This document shows, piece by piece, positions 239 to 40,799 of a stretch of DNA of 64,000 nt; within the stretch, counting starts at the first letter, position 1; the number at the start of each line of letters is the position of its first letter. The DNA comes from Pseudomonadota bacterium. GTDB lineage: Bacteria > Pseudomonadota > Gammaproteobacteria > DASZBR01. The DNA lies in the NCBI GenBank assembly GCA_021777765.1, contig JAJYDF010000008.1:19022-83021 (forward strand), written 5' to 3'. The position numbers were made by a program, and so were the translations under genes. Below the pieces are notes generated by a model. The model saw nothing but the letters and a program-made list of their open reading frames with translations. It searched no databases and was not told where the DNA came from.

Positions 239-3200
239 TTAATGCTTTAATCTGTGAATTATCTGTTGACTATTTTCAGTAGGATCTTTTTCTTTTTCTC
301 TTCCTTTTTCTTTTGCTCTTACTGGAATTATCAGAAGACCATTTTCAACAAGATATTTTTCTTTTCCTTTTTCTTTCCCTTTTGCTTGTCTTGGAATTAC
401 CCGATGACTATTTTCATAAATTTCATTTTCTTTTTTAGCTATATGCTGTTTGAAACGTAGTGTAGGTTGTCCCGTATTTTGTGGCTGTGGTGGTAATGTC
501 TTGTCCGTGATAGCGTGTTGTTTGCCTTTTTCATCACGACTTTTAGAATCGTTAATCACTTCAAGCGTAATTTCTCTTTCAGGTGCTGGCGAAGGAGTAT
601 GTGAAACGGATTCCTCCCTATGATTATATTGCCAAGAATTTTTAGCATGCCAGGGCACAGACGGATTCTTTAAATGATTAAGATGTTCATGCAGTGATAA
701 TCCAAATTGTTGATAATGTTGCCGTTCTGCGATCAATTTATCGATTAATTCATTTTTAGCGCCTTGATAAGTTTTTTCTTGTTCTGTTTTTTCAATTTCA
801 GAAATTAAAGAGGATAAGCGTTCATCAATTAATGCAAAATATATTGTAATGCGGTTTTGTTTCGACGTTATTGGCATATCAATCTCTGTTTTAGACAACA
901 TATTTTTTACACCCTCTCGTAATAATTGATTAATTTCAACAAATGTGAGAGCGACTTTGTCTGCCTTGTCATTGCTAATGACTAATTTTTGAAGTTGGTC
1001 CCTGATCATCGTGTAGTTACCGTTGGTCATTAAAAGCTGAGTATCTTTTTTGGGTTGAATATAGTCTGAAATTAAAGATGATATTGCAGAGAGTTGCTGG
1101 GGCGTTAAATTGCTTGGCATTTGCTCGGGTATCTCACCAGTTGATTTATGCGATGGGTTTTCTGTTTTAAGTTGAGAAATTATTTGCCACATCTCATTAT
1201 TTAATAAATCGTGTGTTGCTGAAATGGGGTTATTGGTGCTTTTTTTAATATTTTCACACAGCTCGGCTATGGGTAAAACACGATTAGCTTCTTCTGTAAG
1301 GGAATCTGTAATCCGTTTTAATAAATCAATCGTTAAGCTACGTGGATCCATTTTTTCTAAGGATGGAAGTAATTTTTTGCTATTCCATAATTCTATTACT
1401 ATTTGCCATGAGTCCTGTTGCGCTATAAATAAATGCTGTGATGTAGAATCTTTACTTTGAGATCGTATGACCTTATAAAATTCTTTATATTTAAGCAATT
1501 CGTCATATTTTTGTATTGCTAATTCTTTAATTTTTGCAAATTGCTCATTAGTTATAGAATTAGGTGGTGGTGTTGAAAATAAAAATGAAAAATCGTTAGC
1601 GGGTTGTGTAACTAATTTTTGTAATATTTCCAAGGAATTTTGTTGTAATATCAATTGGGAAGTCGATAGTTGAAAATTTGTATTTTGTATATATGTATCG
1701 TAAAAACGTTGCAATGGCGAATTTTTAATGGATTCAGCCAGTAAAATTTTATTAATACTTATAAATTCATCATGAGTGAGATTCGACGGCGCTGTATCCG
1801 ATAAATTGATTTTCGGTTTTACCACATTCTTGATCAAATTCCAGTGATACCTATTTAAATCATTCCGAATTATTGCTAAAGAATCATTAATATTAAGGTT
1901 AGATTTTCTCGTAGATTCAAAGTTGTTTAAAGCGATAGTCATATTATGGTTAACAGTAGATATAAAACTATCTAAATTGGATATAAACTGCTCATCAAGG
2001 CGGTCTTCGGCATGAGATCTAGATTTTAATAAATTACTATTTGTTAACGGTTGCGTATTTTGAGTGGACTGACTTGCTTTCGCGTTCTGCAAATAGGTTA
2101 TTAAAGGTATAGTGACTCTTTCAGGCAAATATGAATCATTATCAGTCCAATGCTTACCATAATGCGTGTGTGTATTACGTAATAATTCAAACGGCGCTAT
2201 CGGAGGTATAATATCTTTTTGTGTATCTTTATTTATTATATCAATCCATCCTTTGTAATCATATTCTGAGCTAACACTACTGTCTTTAATAAACCAAGTT
2301 TTCTTTTGATTTAAATTATCTTTATCCTGTGGGGATAATAGTTGTTTTGCAAGCTGATATCTTTGATGCGATTCAAGATCGAGCAATGTTTTATGAATAA
2401 TAAAAGAGGTTGCATAATCACCATTTTCCATAGATTTATTGGCGCATGATAGCCATTTAGCAATATGTATAGCCATGTCGTTGGTATTATTGAGTGAAGT
2501 AATGTCGCGTCGCAAAGAATTTGCTAACTGTTCATGATGTGTTTGGTTAAGCTGTTGTTCTTTATTTAAGAATTTACTTAAAGAGAATTGGGTGAATATA
2601 TTACGGCTTTGATGGGTTAATACATTGACGTAATTATCTGTTATTTTTTGTTCAGCTTGATGTAATAAGATATTAATCTGTTCTTGATCGGGTGATGATA
2701 TGTTTTTCAATGATTGTCTTAATAATTCAATATTTCGTAATTTTTGTAATGGCGATAATTTTTCATCCTGTGTAATTTTATTAATTTCTTGTGGAAAGGA
2801 GGATAATAATTTTCTGATGATATTAAGATATTCAGGATTGGAACTGATATTACTTTTAACAGTGGTTATAACATTAAACCGTTCAATTTTTTGCAATAAG
2901 CTAAAATCGTTAGTGGTTGGTTTGTTCGCAATATACTCACAAGTATGGAGAATTTTTTTATCAGATAATCGAGAGCTGTTTCGGGCAGTTTCACACTGAG
3001 CCACAAGACCGGGTGGGATATCATTGAGTAACAACGTAGTGACATCATGTATCGCTTTTATATTCCAATAACGAGAATGTTCTGTATCTGCTAATTCTTT
3101 TTTTAATTGTTCACTGATGGTATTAATTAATTGACTTTCTCTGTCTCTCAGATGTTTGAATATAAGAGGAAATTCTTTTTCTCTTTGTGCTAAAGTTGAG

Positions 3201-4621
3201 CTAGGGTCAAATTCTATTTTTCCAGCCGTAGTTATTTCATCACGTAATTTAGCCAATAGTTTCATATTTTTAGCTAATGATTGTACAGGCAATTTATCAT
3301 CATTTATTTTCAATTTCTCTTCTATGTTATTGATATACTCAACTTGCAATCCATCATGCAATGCATTGATATGTTTTTCTATAGTTAACTTGTTAATGAC
3401 GTCAGTGTTCAATAAACGAAGCATTTTTAATTGTTGAAATTTATCATCAATCCGATCTTTTGCTTCAAAGCTGGCGTCGAATAATGGTAAAACAGATCGA
3501 TTGATGAATTGAGATTTTAAATTGTCGTCAATAAAAATGTCAGGCAAATGATTGAACATATTTAAGATGGATGAAGCTTTTTCCAATGCACTATTATTAT
3601 TAGCTAAAGTTTGTTGTATGCTGTATTGTAATGCGCTAATAAATTTATCACGAAATTTTTCTTTAGATTGGACTATATAATTTCTAATATAATTATCACC
3701 TAAAATTAATTTATCTTTTTCTTTAAATATTCGATTGATATCGTTCATCGCTGAATCAAATTTACCTGGATTTTTTTGTAAGCTTTCTTCAATTTTTTGG
3801 TCGATATAATCTGAAAGTTCGGTTTGAAAGGATATTAAAAGTTCATGCCTTTTTGCAGGGCTTGTCAAGATAGATAAATAGCGTTCACCTGAATATGATC
3901 CTATTGCTTTAGGGATTGGCGCAATGGGCAAAACTTTCATTTTGGGTTGAGAAAATCCTAATTCATCATGGGCATCATAATTGCTGGCAGAATAACTGGA
4001 ATCACCATATCTTATCCGTTCGCAATATTTCCTCAATCCCTTGAGTTTATTTTCAACATCCAAACTTTTATCTAATGCAATGTTATTCATTTCTTTTTCT
4101 GCTAGCGTCAACTGATAATTGACTGGATCTAGCAAGTTAAATCTTTCATTAAAAAATTGTGACGGGAGTAATTTAAATTCTTGATTGAATTTATTGAAAT
4201 TATCTACAGTTTTTAATTTTTCATAGGGAGTATAAGAAATTTTATCCACATTTTTTTCAATAAATCGGGTCAGATAGTTAATGATCTCTTTAGGGTTGCC
4301 CACATTAATATTATTGTTATTATTTGCTTTATCATACTCAACCTCATATAGGTTTATTTGATAGGTCAATAATTCGTTGGATTCTTTTAGAGCCTTTATT
4401 TGATCGCGATCGCTGCGTGAAAGATCAGTCAATTGGGAAAGATGTTTAATTTGTTGTGTGTATAAATTATTTAATTCACAAATAAAACTGTAATTTTTGC
4501 TGCAAATTTCTTTATAAAAGTCAGGGTATTCTCTATAAAGCGCATAATTGACAGGTAAGGATTTTAAACCTGCTTCAATCAATCCGCGTGTCATTGCAGC
4601 TGCTTTTAATTTATCTTTCAT
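239..4621 (-). CDS. large hypothetical protein (1460 aa), candidate secreted effector with RasGEF-like central motifs
   Basis: Uninterrupted 4.4-kb ORF in AT-rich DNA with coiled-coil-like low-complexity composition. Central residues ~655-825 carry Cdc25-homology-like motifs (see findings). The C-terminus has a KGKEKGKEK tandem repeat. Confidence 0.8.
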   Translation of the reverse strand: MKDKLKAAAMTRGLIEAGLKSLPVNYALYREYPDFYKEICSKNYSFICELNNLYTQQIKHLSQLTDLSRSDRDQIKALKESNELLTYQINLYEVEYDKANNNNNINVGNPKEIINYLTRFIEKNVDKISYTPYEKLKTVDNFNKFNQEFKLLPSQFFNERFNLLDPVNYQLTLAEKEMNNIALDKSLDVENKLKGLRKYCERIRYGDSSYSASNYDAHDELGFSQPKMKVLPIAPIPKAIGSYSGERYLSILTSPAKRHELLISFQTELSDYIDQKIEESLQKNPGKFDSAMNDINRIFKEKDKLILGDNYIRNYIVQSKEKFRDKFISALQYSIQQTLANNNSALEKASSILNMFNHLPDIFIDDNLKSQFINRSVLPLFDASFEAKDRIDDKFQQLKMLRLLNTDVINKLTIEKHINALHDGLQVEYINNIEEKLKINDDKLPVQSLAKNMKLLAKLRDEITTAGKIEFDPSSTLAQREKEFPLIFKHLRDRESQLINTISEQLKKELADTEHSRYWNIKAIHDVTTLLLNDIPPGLVAQCETARNSSRLSDKKILHTCEYIANKPTTNDFSLLQKIERFNVITTVKSNISSNPEYLNIIRKLLSSFPQEINKITQDEKLSPLQKLRNIELLRQSLKNISSPDQEQINILLHQAEQKITDNYVNVLTHQSRNIFTQFSLSKFLNKEQQLNQTHHEQLANSLRRDITSLNNTNDMAIHIAKWLSCANKSMENGDYATSFIIHKTLLDLESHQRYQLAKQLLSPQDKDNLNQKKTWFIKDSSVSSEYDYKGWIDIINKDTQKDIIPPIAPFELLRNTHTHYGKHWTDNDSYLPERVTIPLITYLQNAKASQSTQNTQPLTNSNLLKSRSHAEDRLDEQFISNLDSFISTVNHNMTIALNNFESTRKSNLNINDSLAIIRNDLNRYHWNLIKNVVKPKINLSDTAPSNLTHDEFISINKILLAESIKNSPLQRFYDTYIQNTNFQLSTSQLILQQNSLEILQKLVTQPANDFSFLFSTPPPNSITNEQFAKIKELAIQKYDELLKYKEFYKVIRSQSKDSTSQHLFIAQQDSWQIVIELWNSKKLLPSLEKMDPRSLTIDLLKRITDSLTEEANRVLPIAELCENIKKSTNNPISATHDLLNNEMWQIISQLKTENPSHKSTGEIPEQMPSNLTPQQLSAISSLISDYIQPKKDTQLLMTNGNYTMIRDQLQKLVISNDKADKVALTFVEINQLLREGVKNMLSKTEIDMPITSKQNRITIYFALIDERLSSLISEIEKTEQEKTYQGAKNELIDKLIAERQHYQQFGLSLHEHLNHLKNPSVPWHAKNSWQYNHREESVSHTPSPAPEREITLEVINDSKSRDEKGKQHAITDKTLPPQPQNTGQPTLRFKQHIAKKENEIYENSHRVIPRQAKGKEKGKEKYLVENGLLIIPVRAKEKGREKEKDPTENSQQIIHRLKH
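291..432. repeat. imperfect ~70-bp tandem duplication inside the 3' end of the 1460-aa CDS
   Basis: Two consecutive ~70-bp units at ~75% identity (cttttt(c)tcttcctttttctt...ggaattatcagaagacc versus ...ggaattacccgatgac). They encode two IP(R/V)xAK(G/E)KEKG(K/R)EK peptide units. Confidence 0.6.
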
Positions 4622-6392: not shown

Positions 6393-6468
<76 letters not shown>

Positions 6469-6493: not shown

Positions 6494-6569
6494 GTCCCCA
6501 TCGTCTAGAGGCCTAGGACATTGCCCTTTCACGGCAGTAACAGGGGTTCGAATCCCCTTGGGGACGCCA
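6494..6569 (+). tRNA. tRNA-Glu (anticodon UUC)
   Basis: GTCCCCATCGTCTAGAGGCCTAGGACATTGCCCTTTCACGGCAG...GGGGACGCCA is near-identical to canonical tRNA-Glu. Anticodon loop CTTTCAC. Confidence 0.9.
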
Positions 6570-20395: not shown

Positions 20396-21775
<1,380 letters not shown>

Positions 21776-21810
21776 TTAAAAATCCTCAAAAAAAATATTT
21801 TAAAATAAAT

Positions 21811-22671
21811 TTATACTGCTGCCGCACCGCCAATAATTTCTGCTAATTCTTGAGTAATAGCAGATTGACGTGCTTTATTGTAAATTAATTGCAAATCATT
21901 AATTAATTCTTTGGCGTTATCGGTTGCATTTTTCATTGCTAACATTTGTGCAGCATGCTGACAGGCCAAATTTTCAATCACTGCTTGGTAAACTTGTGAC
22001 TCGATATATCTTTTTAATAAAATATCTAACACCATTTTTGCATCAGGTTCATAAATATAATCCCAATATTCACCCAACTGTTTATCCTCAGCGGGAACTA
22101 TGGGTAATAATTGCGCAACTTGTGGTTTTTGCGTCATGCTATTCACAAATTCGTTGTAAACAATAAATAAACCATCAAGTTGTTCTTGATCATAAGCATC
22201 TAACATCACTTTAACGATACCAATTAAATCGGTAATGCTAGGGCTGTCACCTAAATGACTTGCCTTAGCAACAACATGTCCACCATGACGTTTAAAAAAA
22301 TTTTCCGCTTTACTACCCACTAAACAAAGATCAATGGCAATATTTTTTTGATGCCATTCTTGCATTGATGTCACGGCAGTTTTTAATAAATTGACATTCA
22401 AGCCGCCGCATAAACCTCGATCAGAAGTGACGATGATATAACCAATTCGTTTAATAGGACGTGCATTTAAATAAGGATGTTTATATTCAGGATGGCTTCT
22501 TGCTAAATGCCCAACAACCGTACGAATTTTTTGTGCATAAGGACGGGAAGCAAACATGCGATCTTGCGCTTTACGCATTTTACTCGCAGCAACCATTTCC
22601 ATTGCATGAGTAATTTTTTGAGTATTTTTAATACTCTGAATTTTTGTGCGAATTTCTTTGGTTGCTGCCAT
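21811..22671 (-). CDS. atpG: ATP synthase F1 gamma subunit
   Basis: 286 aa, [11 protein letters not shown]... is a typical AtpG N-terminus. Position in operon is canonical. Confidence 0.92.
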
Positions 22672-22727
22672 TTATAAATACCTTACAATTTTTTCCATCT
22701 CTCTTTTCTGAGAGATGGAGATAAGTG

Positions 22728-24269
22728 TTACCAAGAATGCGTTGCTTTAAATTTAGTAATAATTTCTTTAAATGCTTTAGATACATCATCCGTCATTTCT
22801 GGTTTATGATTAATTTTTTCAATAATATCTGTATAGTTTTCTTTAAAATACGCTAATAATTCACGCTCAAAAGAAACCACTTTATTTAAATCCATATCAT
22901 CTAAAAACCCTTGATCAACAGCAAATAAACTTAATGCCATTTCAGCAATACTGAGTGGTTGATATTGTGGTTGTTTTAATACTTCTGTGACACGTTGACC
23001 ACGATCTAATTGTTTACGTGTTGTTTCATCTAAATCAGAAGCAAATTGTGCAAATGCAGCTAATTCGCGATATTGTGCTTGCGCTAATCGTATGCCCCCT
23101 GCCAATTTTTTAATGATTTTCGTTTGTGCAGCACCGCCCACACGAGATACAGAAAGACCCGCATTAATTGCAGGACGGATACCGGCATTAAATAAATTCG
23201 TTTCTAAGAATATTTGTCCGTCGGTAATGGAAATAACATTAGTGGGTACGAATGCAGAAACGTCACCCGCTTGCGTTTCAATAATCGGCAATGCGGTTAA
23301 TGAACCTGTTCGATCAGTGACAGCGCCTTTGGTCATTTTTTCAATAAACTTTTCATCAACACGCGCAGCACGTTCTAATAAACGTGAATGTAAATAAAAA
23401 ATATCGCCTGGATAAGCTTCCCGGCCTGGTGGGCGACGTAATAATAATGAAATCTGACGGTAAGCCCAGGCTTGCTTCGTTAAATCATCAAAAATAATTA
23501 AAGCGTCTTCACCTTTGTCGCGGAAATATTCACCCATTGAACAGCCAGAATAGGGAGCAATAAATTGCATTGAGGCAGCATCGGCTGCGGACGCCGCAAC
23601 GACGATGGTATGCGCCAACGCACCGTGTTCTTCTAATTTGTGTACCACGGCAGCTACAGAAGAGGCTTTTTGGCCAATAGCGACATAAATACATTTAACA
23701 CCAGTACCTTTTTGATTAATGATGGTATCAATCGCTACCGCTGTTTTCCCAGTTTGTCTATCGCCAATGATTAATTCACGTTGACCACGACCAATGGGAA
23801 CCATGGCATCAATCGATTTAATACCTGTTTGTAAAGGTTGTGATACCGATTTACGCGTAATAACACCCGGCGCAACTTTTTCAATAGGTGAACGACCTTG
23901 GGCTTGAATGGGACCTTTGCCATCAATGGGATTGCCTAAGGCATCGACTACGCGCCCTAGTAATGCTTCCCCCACAGGGACCTCTAAAATACGACCTGTA
24001 CATTTGGCAATTTGACCTTCAGCGAGAGAATCGTATGGGCCTAATACCACAGCACCGACAGAATTACGTTCTAGGTTTAATGCAACACCGAAAACGTTAC
24101 CGGGGAATTCGATCATTTCACCTTGCATTGCATCTGCAAGACCATGTATTCGAATAATACCGTCACGTATACTGACAATAATACCTTCTGTTCTGACTTC
24201 AGCAGAAATATCAAAATTTTCGATACGTTGTTTAATTAATTCGCTAATTTCAGCTGGACTTAATTCCAT
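22728..24269 (-). CDS. atpA: ATP synthase F1 alpha subunit
   Basis: Walker A GDRQTGKT. 513 aa. Confidence 0.95.
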
Positions 24270-24292
24270 ACTCGTTCCTCATGACAAAATAT

Positions 24293-24829
24293 TTATGATG
24301 CAAGTGAATGTGCCATACGTAATAATTTACTACGCACTGAGCCATCAATGACTAAATCACCTGCACGAATAATTGCACCACCGATGAGATCGGGATTCAA
24401 TTCAAACACTAAATTAATATTACATTGCAGTCGTATTTTTAATGCTTGTAATAAGTTATTTTTAATAGCTTTTGACAAAGGTAATGCAGAAGTCACAATG
24501 ACTGTGATTAATTTTTCGCGGTCCGCGCGATAGACTTCAAATAATTTAGCAATTTCCGGTAATGCCGCTAACCTTTTTTGCTCAGCCAAGGCGTTAAGTA
24601 AATTATTTGCTTGTTCATTTTTATCTTTACTGCAAATGGCAATTAGAATTTCGACAAGTTGTTGGTCTGTTACACGCGGGTCAGTGATTAATTTTTTTAA
24701 TTGAGGATCATCTGCAGCCAATGACAATATGCCAAGTATATTTGACCATTGCGTTAAAGTATTTTGCGCTAATGCCAAATCAAAAATGGCTTTGGCATAA
24801 GGTCGTGCAATTGTCGCTGAATCTGCCAT
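24293..24829 (-). CDS. atpH: ATP synthase F1 delta subunit
   Basis: 178 aa. N-terminal ATIARPYAKAIFD is OSCP/delta-like. Confidence 0.9.
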   Translation of the reverse strand: MADSATIARPYAKAIFDLALAQNTLTQWSNILGILSLAADDPQLKKLITDPRVTDQQLVEILIAICSKDKNEQANNLLNALAEQKRLAALPEIAKLFEVYRADREKLITVIVTSALPLSKAIKNNLLQALKIRLQCNINLVFELNPDLIGGAIIRAGDLVIDGSVRSKLLRMAHSLAS

Positions 24830-24833
24830 TAAA

Positions 24834-25304
24834 TTAGATCTCGGTAATTAATTGTTGTAACAAATCATGATCAGAGCTGGTATCAATATGACGTTGTAAT
24901 ATTTTTTCAGCGCCACTGATTGCAATGCCTGCTAATTGTTTACGTAATTCTTGCTTTGCCGCTTCTCTTTCTTGTTCGATTTCTGATTTTGAAAGGACCA
25001 ATAATCTATTACCTTCTTCACGAGCACGTTCTTTCGCTTCGTCAATAATGCGACCTGCGCGTTTATTCGCTTGATCGAGAATATCAGCGGCTTGAATTTT
25101 AGCATCACGTAATAATTCGGCGGATTTATGTTGCGATAGTTCTAATTCATAAACGCCTTTTTCTGCAGCAGCGAGACCCTCAGCAATTTTAGCTTTGCGT
25201 TCATCCATTACTTTCATAATGGGTGGCCAAATATATTTCATTGTGATCCACACTAATAATGTGAATGTAATGAATTGACCTATGATAGTTGCATTTATTT
25301 CCAT
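24834..25304 (-). CDS. atpF: ATP synthase F0 b subunit
   Basis: Single N-terminal TM helix followed by a long charged coiled coil. Start chosen at the internal Met (MEINATIIGQ...) to give ~156 aa. The ORF extends upstream to 25358. Confidence 0.85.
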   Translation of the reverse strand: MEINATIIGQFITFTLLVWITMKYIWPPIMKVMDERKAKIAEGLAAAEKGVYELELSQHKSAELLRDAKIQAADILDQANKRAGRIIDEAKERAREEGNRLLVLSKSEIEQEREAAKQELRKQLAGIAISGAEKILQRHIDTSSDHDLLQQLITEI

Positions 25305-25378
25305 TACTGTTAAACCTCTTTTACTGTGCTTGCTACTAAAACAAACAGCAATCGTCAAAATTCAAAATTGTATTTAAA

Positions 25379-26518
<1,140 letters not shown>

Positions 26519-36862: not shown

Positions 36863-38257
36863 ATGTTATTAACAATAACAACAACAAATCAACCCGCTAC
36901 TGATCTTGGATATTTATTACATAAACACCCTGATAAATTACACACTTTTGAATTGTCTTTTGGTAATGCTCATGTATTTTATCCTGTTGCAAACCAGGAT
37001 AAATGTACCGCGGCATTGTTATTGGATATTGATCCCATCTCGCTAGTTAGAAAATCGAAAGGCAATGAAAATTTTGCGCTTCAACAATATGTTAATGATC
37101 GGCCTTATGTAGCCTCATCATTTATGAGCGTTGCTTTAAATCGTGTATTCCGCTCGACCTTAGCTGGACAATGTAAAGATAAACCTGAATTGGTCAATCA
37201 ATCAATGCCACTGGAAGCAAAAATATCTGTCATATTTTGTGGGGTTGGTGAACAGATATTGAAAAATTTATTTGAACCACTGGGTTATACCATAACAATA
37301 CAGCAACATATATTAGATGAACATTTTCCAGAATGGGGCATTAGTAATTATTTTACGCTTATATTGAAAAATAATTGTACATTGCGAGATCTGTTAACGC
37401 ATCTTTATGTATTAATTCCCGTTTTAGATAACGAAAAACATTATTATATTGATGAGGCTGAAATTGATAAATTAATGCGAATGGGACAAGGTTGGCTTGA
37501 GTCCCATCCTGAAAAAGAATTTATCATCAAACGTTATCTTAAATTTAAGGATTTAGCCGACGAGGCATTAGAGCAATTAGCTATAAATGACGTTAATAAT
37601 TTAACGAATCAATATGCTCACGAAACTGTCACAGAAGAAGCGCTGGAACAATCTACCAATCTCAATGAAATTCGCATTAATACCATTTTATCAGTATTAA
37701 AAGAGTATAGAGTTAAATCCATTATGGATATTGGTTGCGGTGAAGGAAAATTATTAAAAGCATTAGCATCTGAAAAAATGGTTGAAAATATTGTTGGATG
37801 TGATGCTTCACCAACTGCGTTGGCGCGCGCACAAAAAAATCTGAATTTAGAACAGTCCGATTTTCTTAAACAAAGAATTTCATTAATACAAACAGCATTA
37901 ACTTATCGCGATAAGCGTTTACTGGGCTTTGATGCGGCAACCATTATTGAGGTAATAGAACATTTAGACCAATCACGATTGGATACTTTTAAAAGAATTA
38001 TTTTTGAGTTTTATCGACCAAAGTTGATAATTATTACTACGCCTAATCATGAGTATAATATTTTATTTGAAAAATTAGTTCATGGTGCATTTCGTCATCC
38101 TGATCATCGCTTTGAATGGACTCGTCAACAATTTGAACAATGGTCGAATTTAGTTGCTGATGAATTTGGTTATAAAGTTCATTTCCAGGGCATAGGATCG
38201 CAATCAGAAAAATTTGGTTCGCCGACGCAAATGGGAGTTTTTATCAGAAATGAATAA
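36863..38257 (+). CDS. hen1: bacterial Hen1 RNA 3'-terminal ribose 2'-O-methyltransferase
   Basis: C-terminal SAM methyltransferase motif IMDIGCGEGKLL...GCDAS...IIEVIEHLD and a Hen1-like N-terminal domain. 464 aa. Coupled to pnkp by an 8-bp overlap. Confidence 0.8.
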   Translation: MLLTITTTNQPATDLGYLLHKHPDKLHTFELSFGNAHVFYPVANQDKCTAALLLDIDPISLVRKSKGNENFALQQYVNDRPYVASSFMSVALNRVFRSTLAGQCKDKPELVNQSMPLEAKISVIFCGVGEQILKNLFEPLGYTITIQQHILDEHFPEWGISNYFTLILKNNCTLRDLLTHLYVLIPVLDNEKHYYIDEAEIDKLMRMGQGWLESHPEKEFIIKRYLKFKDLADEALEQLAINDVNNLTNQYAHETVTEEALEQSTNLNEIRINTILSVLKEYRVKSIMDIGCGEGKLLKALASEKMVENIVGCDASPTALARAQKNLNLEQSDFLKQRISLIQTALTYRDKRLLGFDAATIIEVIEHLDQSRLDTFKRIIFEFYRPKLIIITTPNHEYNILFEKLVHGAFRHPDHRFEWTRQQFEQWSNLVADEFGYKVHFQGIGSQSEKFGSPTQMGVFIRNE

Positions 38258-40799
38258 TCAAGTAATCAATTTACCGCAATTATCTTTAGTCTTATTAGTG
38301 GGCGTATCGGGGAGTGGTAAATCAACATTTGCGCGCAAACATTTTAAAGCAACAGAAGTAATTTCATCTGATTATTGTCGTGCCTTGGTAGCTGATGATG
38401 AAAATGATCAAACTGCAACCCGTGATGCTTTTGAGGTGCTTAATTTTATTGCTGGAAAACGATTAGCAGCAGGTAAATTAACTGTTATTGATGCTACAAA
38501 CGTGCAAGCTGAATCTCGAAAAAGTCTCATTGAATTGGCAAAGCGTAATCATGTATTAGCTGTTGCGATTGTATTTAATATCGATCCGACTATTTGCTCC
38601 GAACGCAATGTGCTTCGCGAAGATCGCGATTTTGAAGATCGAGTTATTCACGCGCAATATCATCAATTACAGCGATCATTAAATAAATTACGTAAAAGCG
38701 AAGGATTCACGCGTACCTATATATTGAATTCTGTTGATGAAATAAATTCTGTAATCATAGAGCGTCACCGCTTATATAATGACAAACTATTTGATCATGG
38801 ACCATTTGATATTATTGGTGATATTCATGGTTGTTTCGATGAATTGATTGATTTATTACAAAAATTAAATTATCAAATCACTATTAATGAACAGGGTTAT
38901 CAAATTATTCATCCCGAGAATAGAAAAATTGTGTTTGTTGGTGATTTGGTTGATCGAGGTCCTAAATCGCCTGATGTTTTAAAATTAGTGATGAGTGTGG
39001 TTACATCAGGTGTAGGATATTGTGTTAATGGAAATCATGATAATAAATTAAAACGTAAATTAATGGGCAACGATGTTCAAATTACGCATGGCCTAAAAGA
39101 AACATTAGCGCAACTTGAAAATGAATCGCACGATTTTAAATTAAAAGTAAAAGATTTTCTTGACGGTTTAATCAGTCATTATGTATTTGATGATGGCAAG
39201 CTTGCCGTAGCGCATGCAGGATTACGTGAAAAATATATAGGACGTGGTTCTGCTAGAATACGTGATTTTTGTATGTATGGTGATACCACTGGTGAGACTG
39301 ATGAATTTGGTTTACCAATTCGCTATGAATGGGCAAAGGATTATCGAGGTAATACGATTATTGTATATGGTCATACGCCAATCCTAGAACCAGAATGGTT
39401 AAATAATACGATTAATATTGATACGGGTTGTGTCTTTGGGGGCAAACTCACAGCATTACGTTATCCCGAAAAAGAAATCATTTCTGTGTCTGCTGCACAA
39501 ATGTATTACAAACCGATCAAACCGATAGGCCATAATGTCGTTGATAAAAACGATATCATTTTAGATATTGAAGATATTGCTGGAAAACGGATTATAAACA
39601 CGCAATTATTAAATAATATCACCATTCGGGAAGAAAATAGTATCGCCGCAATAGAAACAATGACACGATTTGCTATTGATCCGCGATGGTTAATTTATTT
39701 GCCACCCACCATGTCACCTTCAGAAACAAGTCATGAAGCTAATTATTTGGAACATCCAAGAGAAGCAATAAATTATTTTCATAAGAGATCAATTTATCAA
39801 TTAATTTGTCAAGAAAAACATATGGGTTCAAGAGCTATTGTCATTATTTGCAAAAATAATCAGGTAGCAAAAAATCGGTTTAAAGTAACACATGATGCAA
39901 TTGGTATTTGTTATACCCGTACAGGTCGTAATTTCTTTTCAGATAATGAGCATGAACAACAATTTTTAGAAAAAGTTCAAAATGCAGTTTCTAAAATAAA
40001 TTTATGGGAACAATTAAATACTGACTGGCTTTGTTTGGATTGTGAAATAATGCCATGGTCTGCAAAAGCGCAATCATTAATTGAGAAACAATATGCTGCT
40101 GTAGGTTGCGCAGCTGAAGCAACATTACATGAAATAAGTGAATTGCTATTGAAAACAAAAAACAGGGCTATTAATCAAGTCGGTGAGATTGAAGAGAAAT
40201 TTAATAAACGATTAACTATGATAAATGCTTATCGTGATGCATATCGGCGCTATTGTTGGAATATCAATTCAATAGAAGATTACAAATTGGCACCATTTCA
40301 TATTTTAGCATTTGAAAATCAGGTGAATTTAGATAAAAATCATTTATGGCATTTAAATATTATTAATCAATTATGTGATACAGATGCCAATTTTTTTAAA
40401 AAAACAAATTATAAAATTCTCGATACCAATAATGCTGAAAATTGTGATGAAGTTATTGCGTGGTGGCATGAATTAACTTCTTCGGGTGGTGAGGGTATGG
40501 TAGTAAAACCGCTAGATTTTACAATTAAAACTGCTAGGGAATTAATTCAACCTGGTATTAAATGCCGAGGCCAAGAATATTTGCGCATTATTTATGGCCC
40601 AGAATATTTAGAGCCAGCGAATTTAGAAAAATTAAGATCGCGTCATTTGGGGCTGAAAAGATCATTAGCGTTGAGAGAATTCGCTTTAGGCCACGAAGCG
40701 TTAAATCGTTTCATCAATTTTGCTCCATTATATAAAGTACATGAAGCAGTGTTTGGTATTCTCGCTCTTGAGAGCGAGCCAGTTGATCCGAGATTATAA
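38250..40799 (+). CDS. pnkp: polynucleotide kinase-phosphatase (Pnkp) with kinase, metallophosphoesterase and ligase-like domains
   Basis: P-loop GVSGSGKST kinase, calcineurin-like GDIHGC...GDLVDRG...GNHD phosphoesterase, and a C-terminal adenylyltransferase-like domain. Start set at the internal MNNQVINL. The ORF extends upstream to 38214. Confidence 0.82.
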   Translation: MNNQVINLPQLSLVLLVGVSGSGKSTFARKHFKATEVISSDYCRALVADDENDQTATRDAFEVLNFIAGKRLAAGKLTVIDATNVQAESRKSLIELAKRNHVLAVAIVFNIDPTICSERNVLREDRDFEDRVIHAQYHQLQRSLNKLRKSEGFTRTYILNSVDEINSVIIERHRLYNDKLFDHGPFDIIGDIHGCFDELIDLLQKLNYQITINEQGYQIIHPENRKIVFVGDLVDRGPKSPDVLKLVMSVVTSGVGYCVNGNHDNKLKRKLMGNDVQITHGLKETLAQLENESHDFKLKVKDFLDGLISHYVFDDGKLAVAHAGLREKYIGRGSARIRDFCMYGDTTGETDEFGLPIRYEWAKDYRGNTIIVYGHTPILEPEWLNNTINIDTGCVFGGKLTALRYPEKEIISVSAAQMYYKPIKPIGHNVVDKNDIILDIEDIAGKRIINTQLLNNITIREENSIAAIETMTRFAIDPRWLIYLPPTMSPSETSHEANYLEHPREAINYFHKRSIYQLICQEKHMGSRAIVIICKNNQVAKNRFKVTHDAIGICYTRTGRNFFSDNEHEQQFLEKVQNAVSKINLWEQLNTDWLCLDCEIMPWSAKAQSLIEKQYAAVGCAAEATLHEISELLLKTKNRAINQVGEIEEKFNKRLTMINAYRDAYRRYCWNINSIEDYKLAPFHILAFENQVNLDKNHLWHLNIINQLCDTDANFFKKTNYKILDTNNAENCDEVIAWWHELTSSGGEGMVVKPLDFTIKTARELIQPGIKCRGQEYLRIIYGPEYLEPANLEKLRSRHLGLKRSLALREFALGHEALNRFINFAPLYKVHEAVFGILALESEPVDPRL

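Follow-up and report, generated by a model that had tools for sequence, protein, structure and literature searches.

In a 64,000-nucleotide stretch of a gammaproteobacterial contig (JAJYDF010000008.1, positions 19,022 to 83,021; here called the window), a large open reading frame (ORF) of 1460 amino acids (aa) was identified as the probable carrier of a Cdc25-homology domain, the domain of the Ras guanine nucleotide exchange factors (GEFs; RasGEF). Judged from sequence comparisons, residues ~655-776 of the encoded protein, possibly extending to ~850, probably represent a very diverged form of this domain within a large protein, predicted to be all-helical, which may be delivered to a host. The RasGEF descent of this block is well supported. 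The domain can be demonstrated over its N-terminal two-thirds only, and its helical hairpin and an exchange activity are proposed by extension. Another ORF of the window, of 676 aa, probably encodes a further RasGEF-like domain at residues ~128-330 that has diverged independently, for which the evidence is suggestive.

Attention had been drawn to both proteins by an initial annotation, in which a RasGEF-like block was described at 2147..2659. On the minus strand, these positions were found to encode exactly residues 655-825 of the 1460-aa ORF, in its reading frame. The strings quoted for this block are all present, namely ITDNYVNVLTHQSRNIFTQFSLSKFL (residues 660-685), IHIAKWLSCANKS (residues 718-730), YATSFIIHKTL (residues 736-746), NQKKTWF (residues 771-777) and IIPPIAPFELL (residues 804-814), as is SRIFREF at residues 138-144 of the 676-aa ORF. 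The coordinates of the main features are collected in Table 1.

The bridging homologue P0003 and the RasGEF assignment

The same 1460-aa protein was found on 11 contigs. A word-indexed homologue search of 5.8 billion proteins returned the query alone, and an exhaustive phmmer search with residues 501-1000 against 1.84 billion representative proteins identified a sole relative (E 2.2e-10). This protein, P0003, consists of 1329 aa and is encoded on contig DAIAOF010000092 of the metagenome-assembled genome GCA_027437375.1. No match was obtained in the word-indexed search with a profile of residues 441-960 of the 1460-aa protein and P0003, the query itself included. A scan of genome contigs for relatives with the 1460-aa protein, scans of metagenome contigs with the profiles A1 (1460-aa protein and P0003, residues 441-960) and A2, and a scan of viral contigs with a domain-only profile of the 1460-aa block and P0003 were all empty, and when the loci L001, L068 and L082-L084 were searched by tblastn with both window proteins, only the loci of P0003 itself were matched.

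P0003 resembles the 1460-aa protein in size and in being all-helical, the GC content of its genome is likewise ~34%, and both come from the same ENA assembly series. However, the N- and C-terminal regions of the two proteins are unrelated, and their genomic neighbourhoods differ. In BLASTP, residues 449-776 of the 1460-aa protein aligned with residues 421-745 of P0003 (24% identity over 338 columns, E 1e-19), and residues 655-776 alone aligned with residues 623-745 at 33% identity (E 2e-15). A block kept at this significance is a conserved domain rather than a compositional artefact, and the low-complexity explanation, which the initial annotation had listed among those that would undo its claim, thereby fails.

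In contrast to the 1460-aa protein, P0003 contains enough canonical RasGEF signal to clear the Pfam cut-off. Its residues 633-739 match the RasGEF family PF00617 (profile length 181 positions, gathering score 23.1 bits) over profile positions 3-120, the full protein scoring 30.9 bits and the excised fragment 36.7 bits (E 5e-9), and the precomputed annotation of P0003 likewise gives RasGEF. Plain phmmer matched P0003 to the Cdc25 domain of RasGRF1 in the Protein Data Bank (PDB 2IJE, chain entry 2ije_S; E 8e-4). Against a hidden Markov model (HMM) built only from the fragments of four PDB RasGEFs, those of SOS1, RasGRF1, yeast Cdc25 and RalGPS1, it scored 24.9 bits (E 7.5e-8). When the 1460-aa protein was joined with P0003 in a profile over residues 441-960, RasGRF1 (2ije_S) was the only PDB match (E 0.0026), and with the domain-only profile it was the first PDB match (E 4.7e-4) and the sole long alignment. 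Searched directly against PDB sequences, the 1460-aa region gave no match, hhalign of single sequences or two-sequence profiles against SOS1 alone was not significant (E 0.1-0.4), and small eukaryote-only RasGEF HMMs detected neither of the window proteins. Since the block is homologous to P0003 and P0003 to the RasGEFs, and since homology is transitive, residues 655-776 can be traced to a Cdc25-homology domain, of which they represent the N-terminal two-thirds.

Three sequence blocks were found to be colinear with SOS1 and RasGRF1 in the alignments, those of HMMER included. The first corresponds to helix A and reads LTHQSRNIFTQFSLSKFL in the 1460-aa protein, LISLSRNAFKSFSFYEFL in P0003, LTLLDHLVFKSIPYEEFF in RasGRF1 and LTLLESDLYRAVQPSELV in SOS1. 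The second is IHIAKWLSCANKSMENGDYATSFIIHKTL in the 1460-aa protein and contains the site of the N[FY]N motif of the RasGEF family, which there belongs to the pattern W..vA..c..N[FY]N of helices D and E. The third is RYQLAKQLL at residues 754-762, the counterpart of FRLKKTWLK in RasGRF1. The equation of NQKKTWF with the RasGEF KKTW motif, as made in the initial annotation, is probably wrong, since HMMER aligns the RLKKTW of RasGRF1 to RYQLAKQLL, ~12 residues earlier. In the window proteins, the position aligned to the tryptophan of KTW is occupied by another residue, and a K.W is kept at the NQKKTWF site between the 1460-aa protein and P0003.

For the rest of the 1460-aa protein outside the block, no Pfam domain of any kind was detected. 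Near its C-terminus (~287..409, minus strand; residues ~1405-1445) lie two K/E-rich near-repeats, VIPRQAKGKEKGKEK and IIPVRAKEKGREKEK. By eye, residues ~940-1250 appear to contain helical repeats of ~75 residues with the pattern P.N(L/I)T..(E/Q)F..I; a BLASTP comparison of the protein with itself identified no significant internal repeat.

The 676-aa protein and its relation to the 1460-aa protein

The variants of the 676-aa protein found on other contigs differ at residue 263 only. In public gene calls (P0002, P0004) the protein starts at Met4, skipping 45003..45011, and has 673 aa. The word-indexed search of the same 5.8 billion proteins returned the query alone, and a direct search against PDB sequences gave noise only.

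PF00617 is the top Pfam family for every fragment of this protein that lacks the N-terminal ~119 residues (17.4-18.4 bits, E 0.002-0.004). Two further comparisons are consistent with a RasGEF-like domain. When residues 120-345 were included with the 1460-aa block and P0003 in one profile, RasGRF1 was kept (E 7.4e-4), yeast Cdc25 (E 0.011) and RalGPS1 (E 0.15) were recruited, and matches to TPR proteins given by the two-member profile were gone. Against an HMM of six sequences, the four PDB RasGEFs together with P0003 and the 1460-aa block, the 676-aa fragment scored 16.4 bits, a value reached by none of 4000 global or windowed shuffles (maximum 14.4). Against the eukaryote-only profile it scored 2.2 bits (p ~0.07). 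In place of N[FY]N the 676-aa protein has ND-LF. Beyond the Pfam match, a candidate hairpin helix can be proposed at the level of motifs: if P316 corresponds to P928 of SOS1, M326 and D330 would fall on the positions of L938 and E942.

The initial annotation had regarded the domains of the two proteins as paralogous, and a single bacterial GEF module that was duplicated in this lineage would have given rise to a lineage-specific effector family. We consider a direct paralogy rather unlikely. The motifs S[RS]xIF..F and W..(V/C)A......(N/G)D are indeed common to both proteins, and among the 93 ORFs of the window the 676-aa ORF was the best non-self match of profiles containing the 1460-aa block (E 0.08 and 0.011). 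In the direct comparison, however, these short motifs do not exceed chance: BLASTP gave nothing better than E 1.6-5, with the best alignments not at the motif pairs, and hhalign of the 1460-aa block and P0003 profile against the 676-aa region reached only E 0.19-0.25, although it paired the right blocks, including those of the KW..A type, colinearly. The HMM of the bacterial pair gave 3.1 bits for the 676-aa fragment (empirical p ~0.04), and the fragment scores no better in this comparison than against the eukaryotic RasGEFs alone. As far as these scores go, the 676-aa domain shows no special closeness to the 1460-aa protein as compared with eukaryotic RasGEFs. Significance is reached with the combined profile alone, and an independent acquisition or a very old divergence therefore fits equally well. 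The claim of one module in two large proteins is thus well supported for the RasGEF descent of the 1460-aa block, suggestive for the 676-aa protein and not supported for a specific kinship of the two.

The hairpin half of the domain and competing readings

A number of results weigh against a RasGEF domain in the 1460-aa protein that is complete, active and delivered to a host. The profile search against RasGEF models, which the initial annotation had proposed as a check, placed P0003 above the gathering score, but PF00617 gave no match to the 1460-aa block at E<=10, neither for the full protein nor for any trimmed fragment; the claim of a RasGEF-like block is thus sustained by descent through P0003 and not by a direct family match. 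The match of the 676-aa protein lies under the gathering score as well and vanishes once the N-terminal 119 residues are included. Against the eukaryote-only HMM, the 1460-aa block scored 2.6 bits (p ~0.05). All RasGEF matches end near profile position 120-135 of 181, and no significant similarity was identified beyond residue 776, even between the 1460-aa protein and P0003 in BLASTP. According to the alignments, both of these proteins have GD[YF]A instead of N[FY]N, and the equivalents of L938 and E942 of SOS1 (the sequence of which was verified against the PDB) would be T817 and Y821 in the 1460-aa protein. The RasGEF_N domain (REM, PF00618) was not detected at E<=1 in residues 441-654 or in the equivalent region of P0003. 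The label of an effector is drawn from the context. Among the window ORFs scanned, no secretion-system genes were identified, and PmrA-type TTAAT-N6-TTAAT sites occur at the frequency expected by chance (3 sites versus 2.3 expected), none of them upstream of either gene. A REM domain is not obligatory for RasGEFs, and RalGPS is without one.

The predicted structure belongs on both sides of this account. An AlphaFold2 model of residues 441-960, built on a two-sequence alignment, is of low confidence (mean predicted local distance difference test (pLDDT) score 52.5, predicted template modelling score 0.37). Values of 70-83 are reached only over residues ~591-660, ~701-730 and ~741-770; the score falls to 30-37 over the putative hairpin and is very low over residues 772-925. 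In a Foldseek search of the PDB with this model, RasGRP2, RasGRP4, yeast Cdc25, Rlf, SOS1 and SOS2 were among the top matches, with probabilities of 0.77-0.98 but with E-values of only 0.05-0.4 and template modelling scores of 0.2-0.36. The 676-aa protein was modelled as all-helical with equally low quality, and no RasGEF was found in the Foldseek top 50 of that model, which argues that RasGEF matches are not the default for poorly modelled helical proteins. Structure prediction of the block, also proposed in the initial annotation, thus points to RasGEFs by the ranking of the matches and falls short in the confidence of the model and in the E-values.

The description of the module as catalytic is not supported by its hairpin half, which has no significant alignment and in which L938 and E942 of SOS1 appear to be replaced by T817 and Y821. 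Since the hairpin is not significantly alignable, exchange activity is unproven. The chief rival to an exchange factor is a protein that is derived from RasGEFs but has lost or remodelled its hairpin, and which would serve as a scaffold binding a GTPase or another host protein. Such a loss of activity would agree with the end of the similarity to RasGEFs and P0003 near the TW block at residue ~776, with the restriction of the Pfam matches to profile positions 3-120, with the two replacements just named and with the very low pLDDT beyond residue 772. On the other side, at the level of motifs, IIPPIAPFELLRNTHTHYG keeps the P-x14-G spacing of the hairpin helix (G 15 residues after P), as in P928..G943 of SOS1, and helices are predicted by the model at residues 808-821 and 832-852, where the hairpin would lie. 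In RasGEFs the catalytic helix of the hairpin has the pattern (I/V)PF.G.YL.DL...EG, which in SOS1 falls within F929-N944. Since the hairpin varies more than any other part of RasGEFs, a failure to align does not prove that it was lost. On balance, the scaffold is considered unlikely.

It is very improbable that the block is no RasGEF and only a chance likeness to a helix-turn-helix or TPR-like helical repeat, with the Pfam match of P0003 as a false positive: the domain-only profile does match consensus TPR proteins (E 0.01-0.06, over W..A......GDYA), P0003 matches an engineered CTPR (E 0.41), and the 1460-aa block has neither a direct RasGEF match nor a good structural model, but the TPR matches are a single stretch of 29 residues versus 110-117 residues in three colinear blocks for RasGRF1, P0003 clears the curated RasGEF cut-off and matches the independent four-sequence HMM (E 7.5e-8), and RasGEFs are enriched among the top Foldseek matches. 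None of the Pfam TPR families was matched by the proteins or fragments scanned. An identity as a TPR repeat protein was rejected, as there is one local match of 29 residues only, without tandem 34-residue repeats.

Within the preferred reading of a diverged RasGEF domain, a more specific proposal can be made, to which we attach no more than tentative belief. The 1460-aa protein and P0003 might stand for a very small group of bacterial Cdc25-like domains, a lineage not recognised before, in which the GTPase-docking core was kept, GD[YF]A took the place of N[FY]N and the hairpin was rebuilt; the 676-aa protein of the same genome would then be a second, independently diverged copy. If this were true, the rebuilt domain could act on new substrates, such as a Ras, Rap or Rheb-like GTPase of amoebae or a GTPase outside the Ras family. 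Alternatively, it could have a function other than exchange, such as the sequestration of a GTPase.

Genomic setting and comparison with known systems

The window has a GC content of 34%. In a comparison of its GltX with 185,579 species representatives, identity did not exceed 67%, and the nearest sequences were from uncultured Coxiellaceae or unclassified Gammaproteobacteria. GltX is the only source of this phylogenetic hint. The bacterium, uncultured and probably amoeba-dwelling, would be a Coxiellales/Legionellales-like gammaproteobacterium. Around both ORFs, housekeeping genes were identified (gltX, ffh, pckA, parC-like, proC, glmU-like, queC and queF), and the ORFs at 20396..26518 resemble an ATP synthase operon, judged from lengths and order alone. 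Interspersed are eukaryote-like genes, coding for three ankyrin proteins, a leucine-rich repeat (LRR) protein and a protein with cyclic-nucleotide-binding and patatin domains like NTE. Such a mixture of housekeeping and eukaryote-like genes is the pattern of Legionellales effector repertoires.

Table 1. Positions of the two proteins under study, their parts and neighbouring genes in the window
Feature	Position	Strand	Remarks
1460-aa ORF	239..4621	minus	orphan save for one distant homologue, P0003; predicted all-helical
Stretch kept in P0003	2294..3277	minus	residues 449-776, upstream helical region and RasGEF-like block; partner P0003 421-745
Diverged Cdc25-homology (RasGEF) domain, probable, N-terminal two-thirds	2294..2659	minus	residues 655-776; 33% identity to P0003
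Putative position of catalytic helical hairpin	2147..2293	minus	residues 777-825, IIPPIAPFELLRNTHTHYG; placed by SOS1/RasGRF1 alignments, assignment uncertain
676-aa ORF	45003..47033	plus	orphan
Sub-threshold RasGEF match	45384..45869	plus	676-aa residues 128-289; PF00617 positions 1-135 of 181; blocks IADELYKMSSRIFREFNPTDML and IVFWAEVAKELQEKNDLFTLNIIYTKL
Candidate hairpin helix	45939..45995	plus	676-aa residues 313-331, NVIPLQTTIYNLYMQEIDL; motif level only, outside Pfam match
tRNA-Ala(GGC)	6393..6468	plus	directly downstream of gltX
tRNA-Glu(TTC)	6494..6569	plus	directly downstream of gltX
Orphan ORF, 805 aa	6625..9042	minus	without Pfam domain; long S/T/P/Q-rich C-terminal tail, lysine-rich end
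Ankyrin-repeat ORF, 1041 aa	9186..12311	plus	in tandem with the next, 31 bases apart
Ankyrin-repeat ORF, 1471 aa	12343..16758	plus	in tandem with the preceding
LRR ORF, 243 aa	29958..30689	minus	LRR_6 match
Hen1 methyltransferase	36863..38257	plus	Hen1_L 370 bits
Pnkp (kinase-phosphatase-ligase)	38214..40799	plus	PNKP_ligase 573 bits
Cold-shock protein gene, 72 aa	44400..44618	plus	in apparent 957-bp gap upstream of 676-aa gene
Ankyrin-repeat ORF, 328 aa	47070..48056	plus	Pfam Ank_2 E 7.5e-14; begins 37 bases past end of 676-aa ORF
NTE-like protein, 598 aa	53264..55060	plus	cyclic-nucleotide-binding, NTE P-loop-like and patatin phospholipase domains

The three ankyrin ORFs are a strong eukaryote-like signature of the genome, and the smallest of them is possibly cotranscribed with the 676-aa ORF. 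The LRR protein is a possible further host-interaction protein. The Hen1 and Pnkp genes form a bacterial RNA-repair pair, the 805-aa orphan ORF is flanked by the tRNA pair on one side and the ankyrin genes on the other, and the cspA thermoregulator of Rfam was matched with 80.3 bits in 44278..44677 on the plus strand, around the cold-shock gene. Past the left edge of the window, contig k141_990281 (L001, 7585..8383) contains a 357-aa ORF with a weak Y_phosphatase match two genes past the 1460-aa gene, which may be another eukaryote-like protein.

Amoeba-dwelling intracellular bacteria borrow eukaryotic signalling domains to control the GTPases of their hosts. By analogy to SOS and Ras, the 1460-aa protein would most likely act as a eukaryote-like protein inside a protist host, with translocation presumed. 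There, the domain would dock on a Ras-family GTPase of the Ras, Rap or Ral type, its helical core holding switch 2 of the nucleotide-free form, and the helical hairpin would displace switch 1, occlude the site of magnesium and phosphate and open the nucleotide pocket. The release of GDP and the loading of GTP would follow, resulting in local activation of the host GTPase at the bacterial vacuole. We know of no biochemical study of a Legionella RasGEF effector. If active, the window proteins would be candidate factors by which a bacterium switches on the Ras, Rap or Ral signalling of its host at the vacuole.

RasGEF modules can thus sit far under the standard thresholds of domain detection in uncultured Coxiellales/Legionellales-like genomes. 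Since it took one bridging homologue, the only one, to recognise the module here, counts of eukaryote-like effector repertoires that rely on Pfam only are underestimates. The practical value is modest and consists of two domains annotated in orphan proteins and a bridging sequence with which a better profile can be seeded.

Among the eukaryotic Cdc25-homology domains, those of RasGRF1 (2IJE), SOS1 (1BKD/3KSY), yeast Cdc25 (7NZZ), RalGPS1 (3QXL) and RasGRP2/4 (6AXF/6AXG) were compared. Apparently in common with them, as three colinear blocks, are the helix A pattern LT..x..(I/L)F..(F/I)...(E/K)F, the helix pair W..vA..c....(N/D)(F/Y), the pattern (Y/F)(R/Q)L.K and the all-helical character, with RasGRF1 as the best PDB sequence match and the RasGRPs as the best Foldseek matches. 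In contrast to the eukaryotic domains, the window proteins lie under Pfam detection, with N[FY]N replaced and the hairpin half not alignable; in the 1460-aa protein, in addition, the equivalents of L938 and E942 are not conserved and a REM domain was not detected. Moreover, it is a bacterial protein, and outside the domain it has nothing in common with the known architectures of eukaryotic GEFs.

In Legionella, a Ras guanine nucleotide exchange domain has been annotated for the effector LegG2 (legG2/lpg0276; llo0327) (PMC2824747), PF00617 has been noted among pathogen-associated domains (PMC8442362), and NRas is manipulated at the Legionella vacuole through another effector (PMC11141579). Like LegG2, a Dot/Icm effector, the window proteins would represent a RasGEF module in an amoeba-associated gammaproteobacterium (PMC2824747, PMC8442362). 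This likeness is one of annotation, and proteins of the LegG2 type are recognised by Pfam directly, whereas those of the window are not. Bacterial proteins bearing a RasGEF domain thus have a precedent in Legionella, and those of the window are new and very divergent members of this kind.

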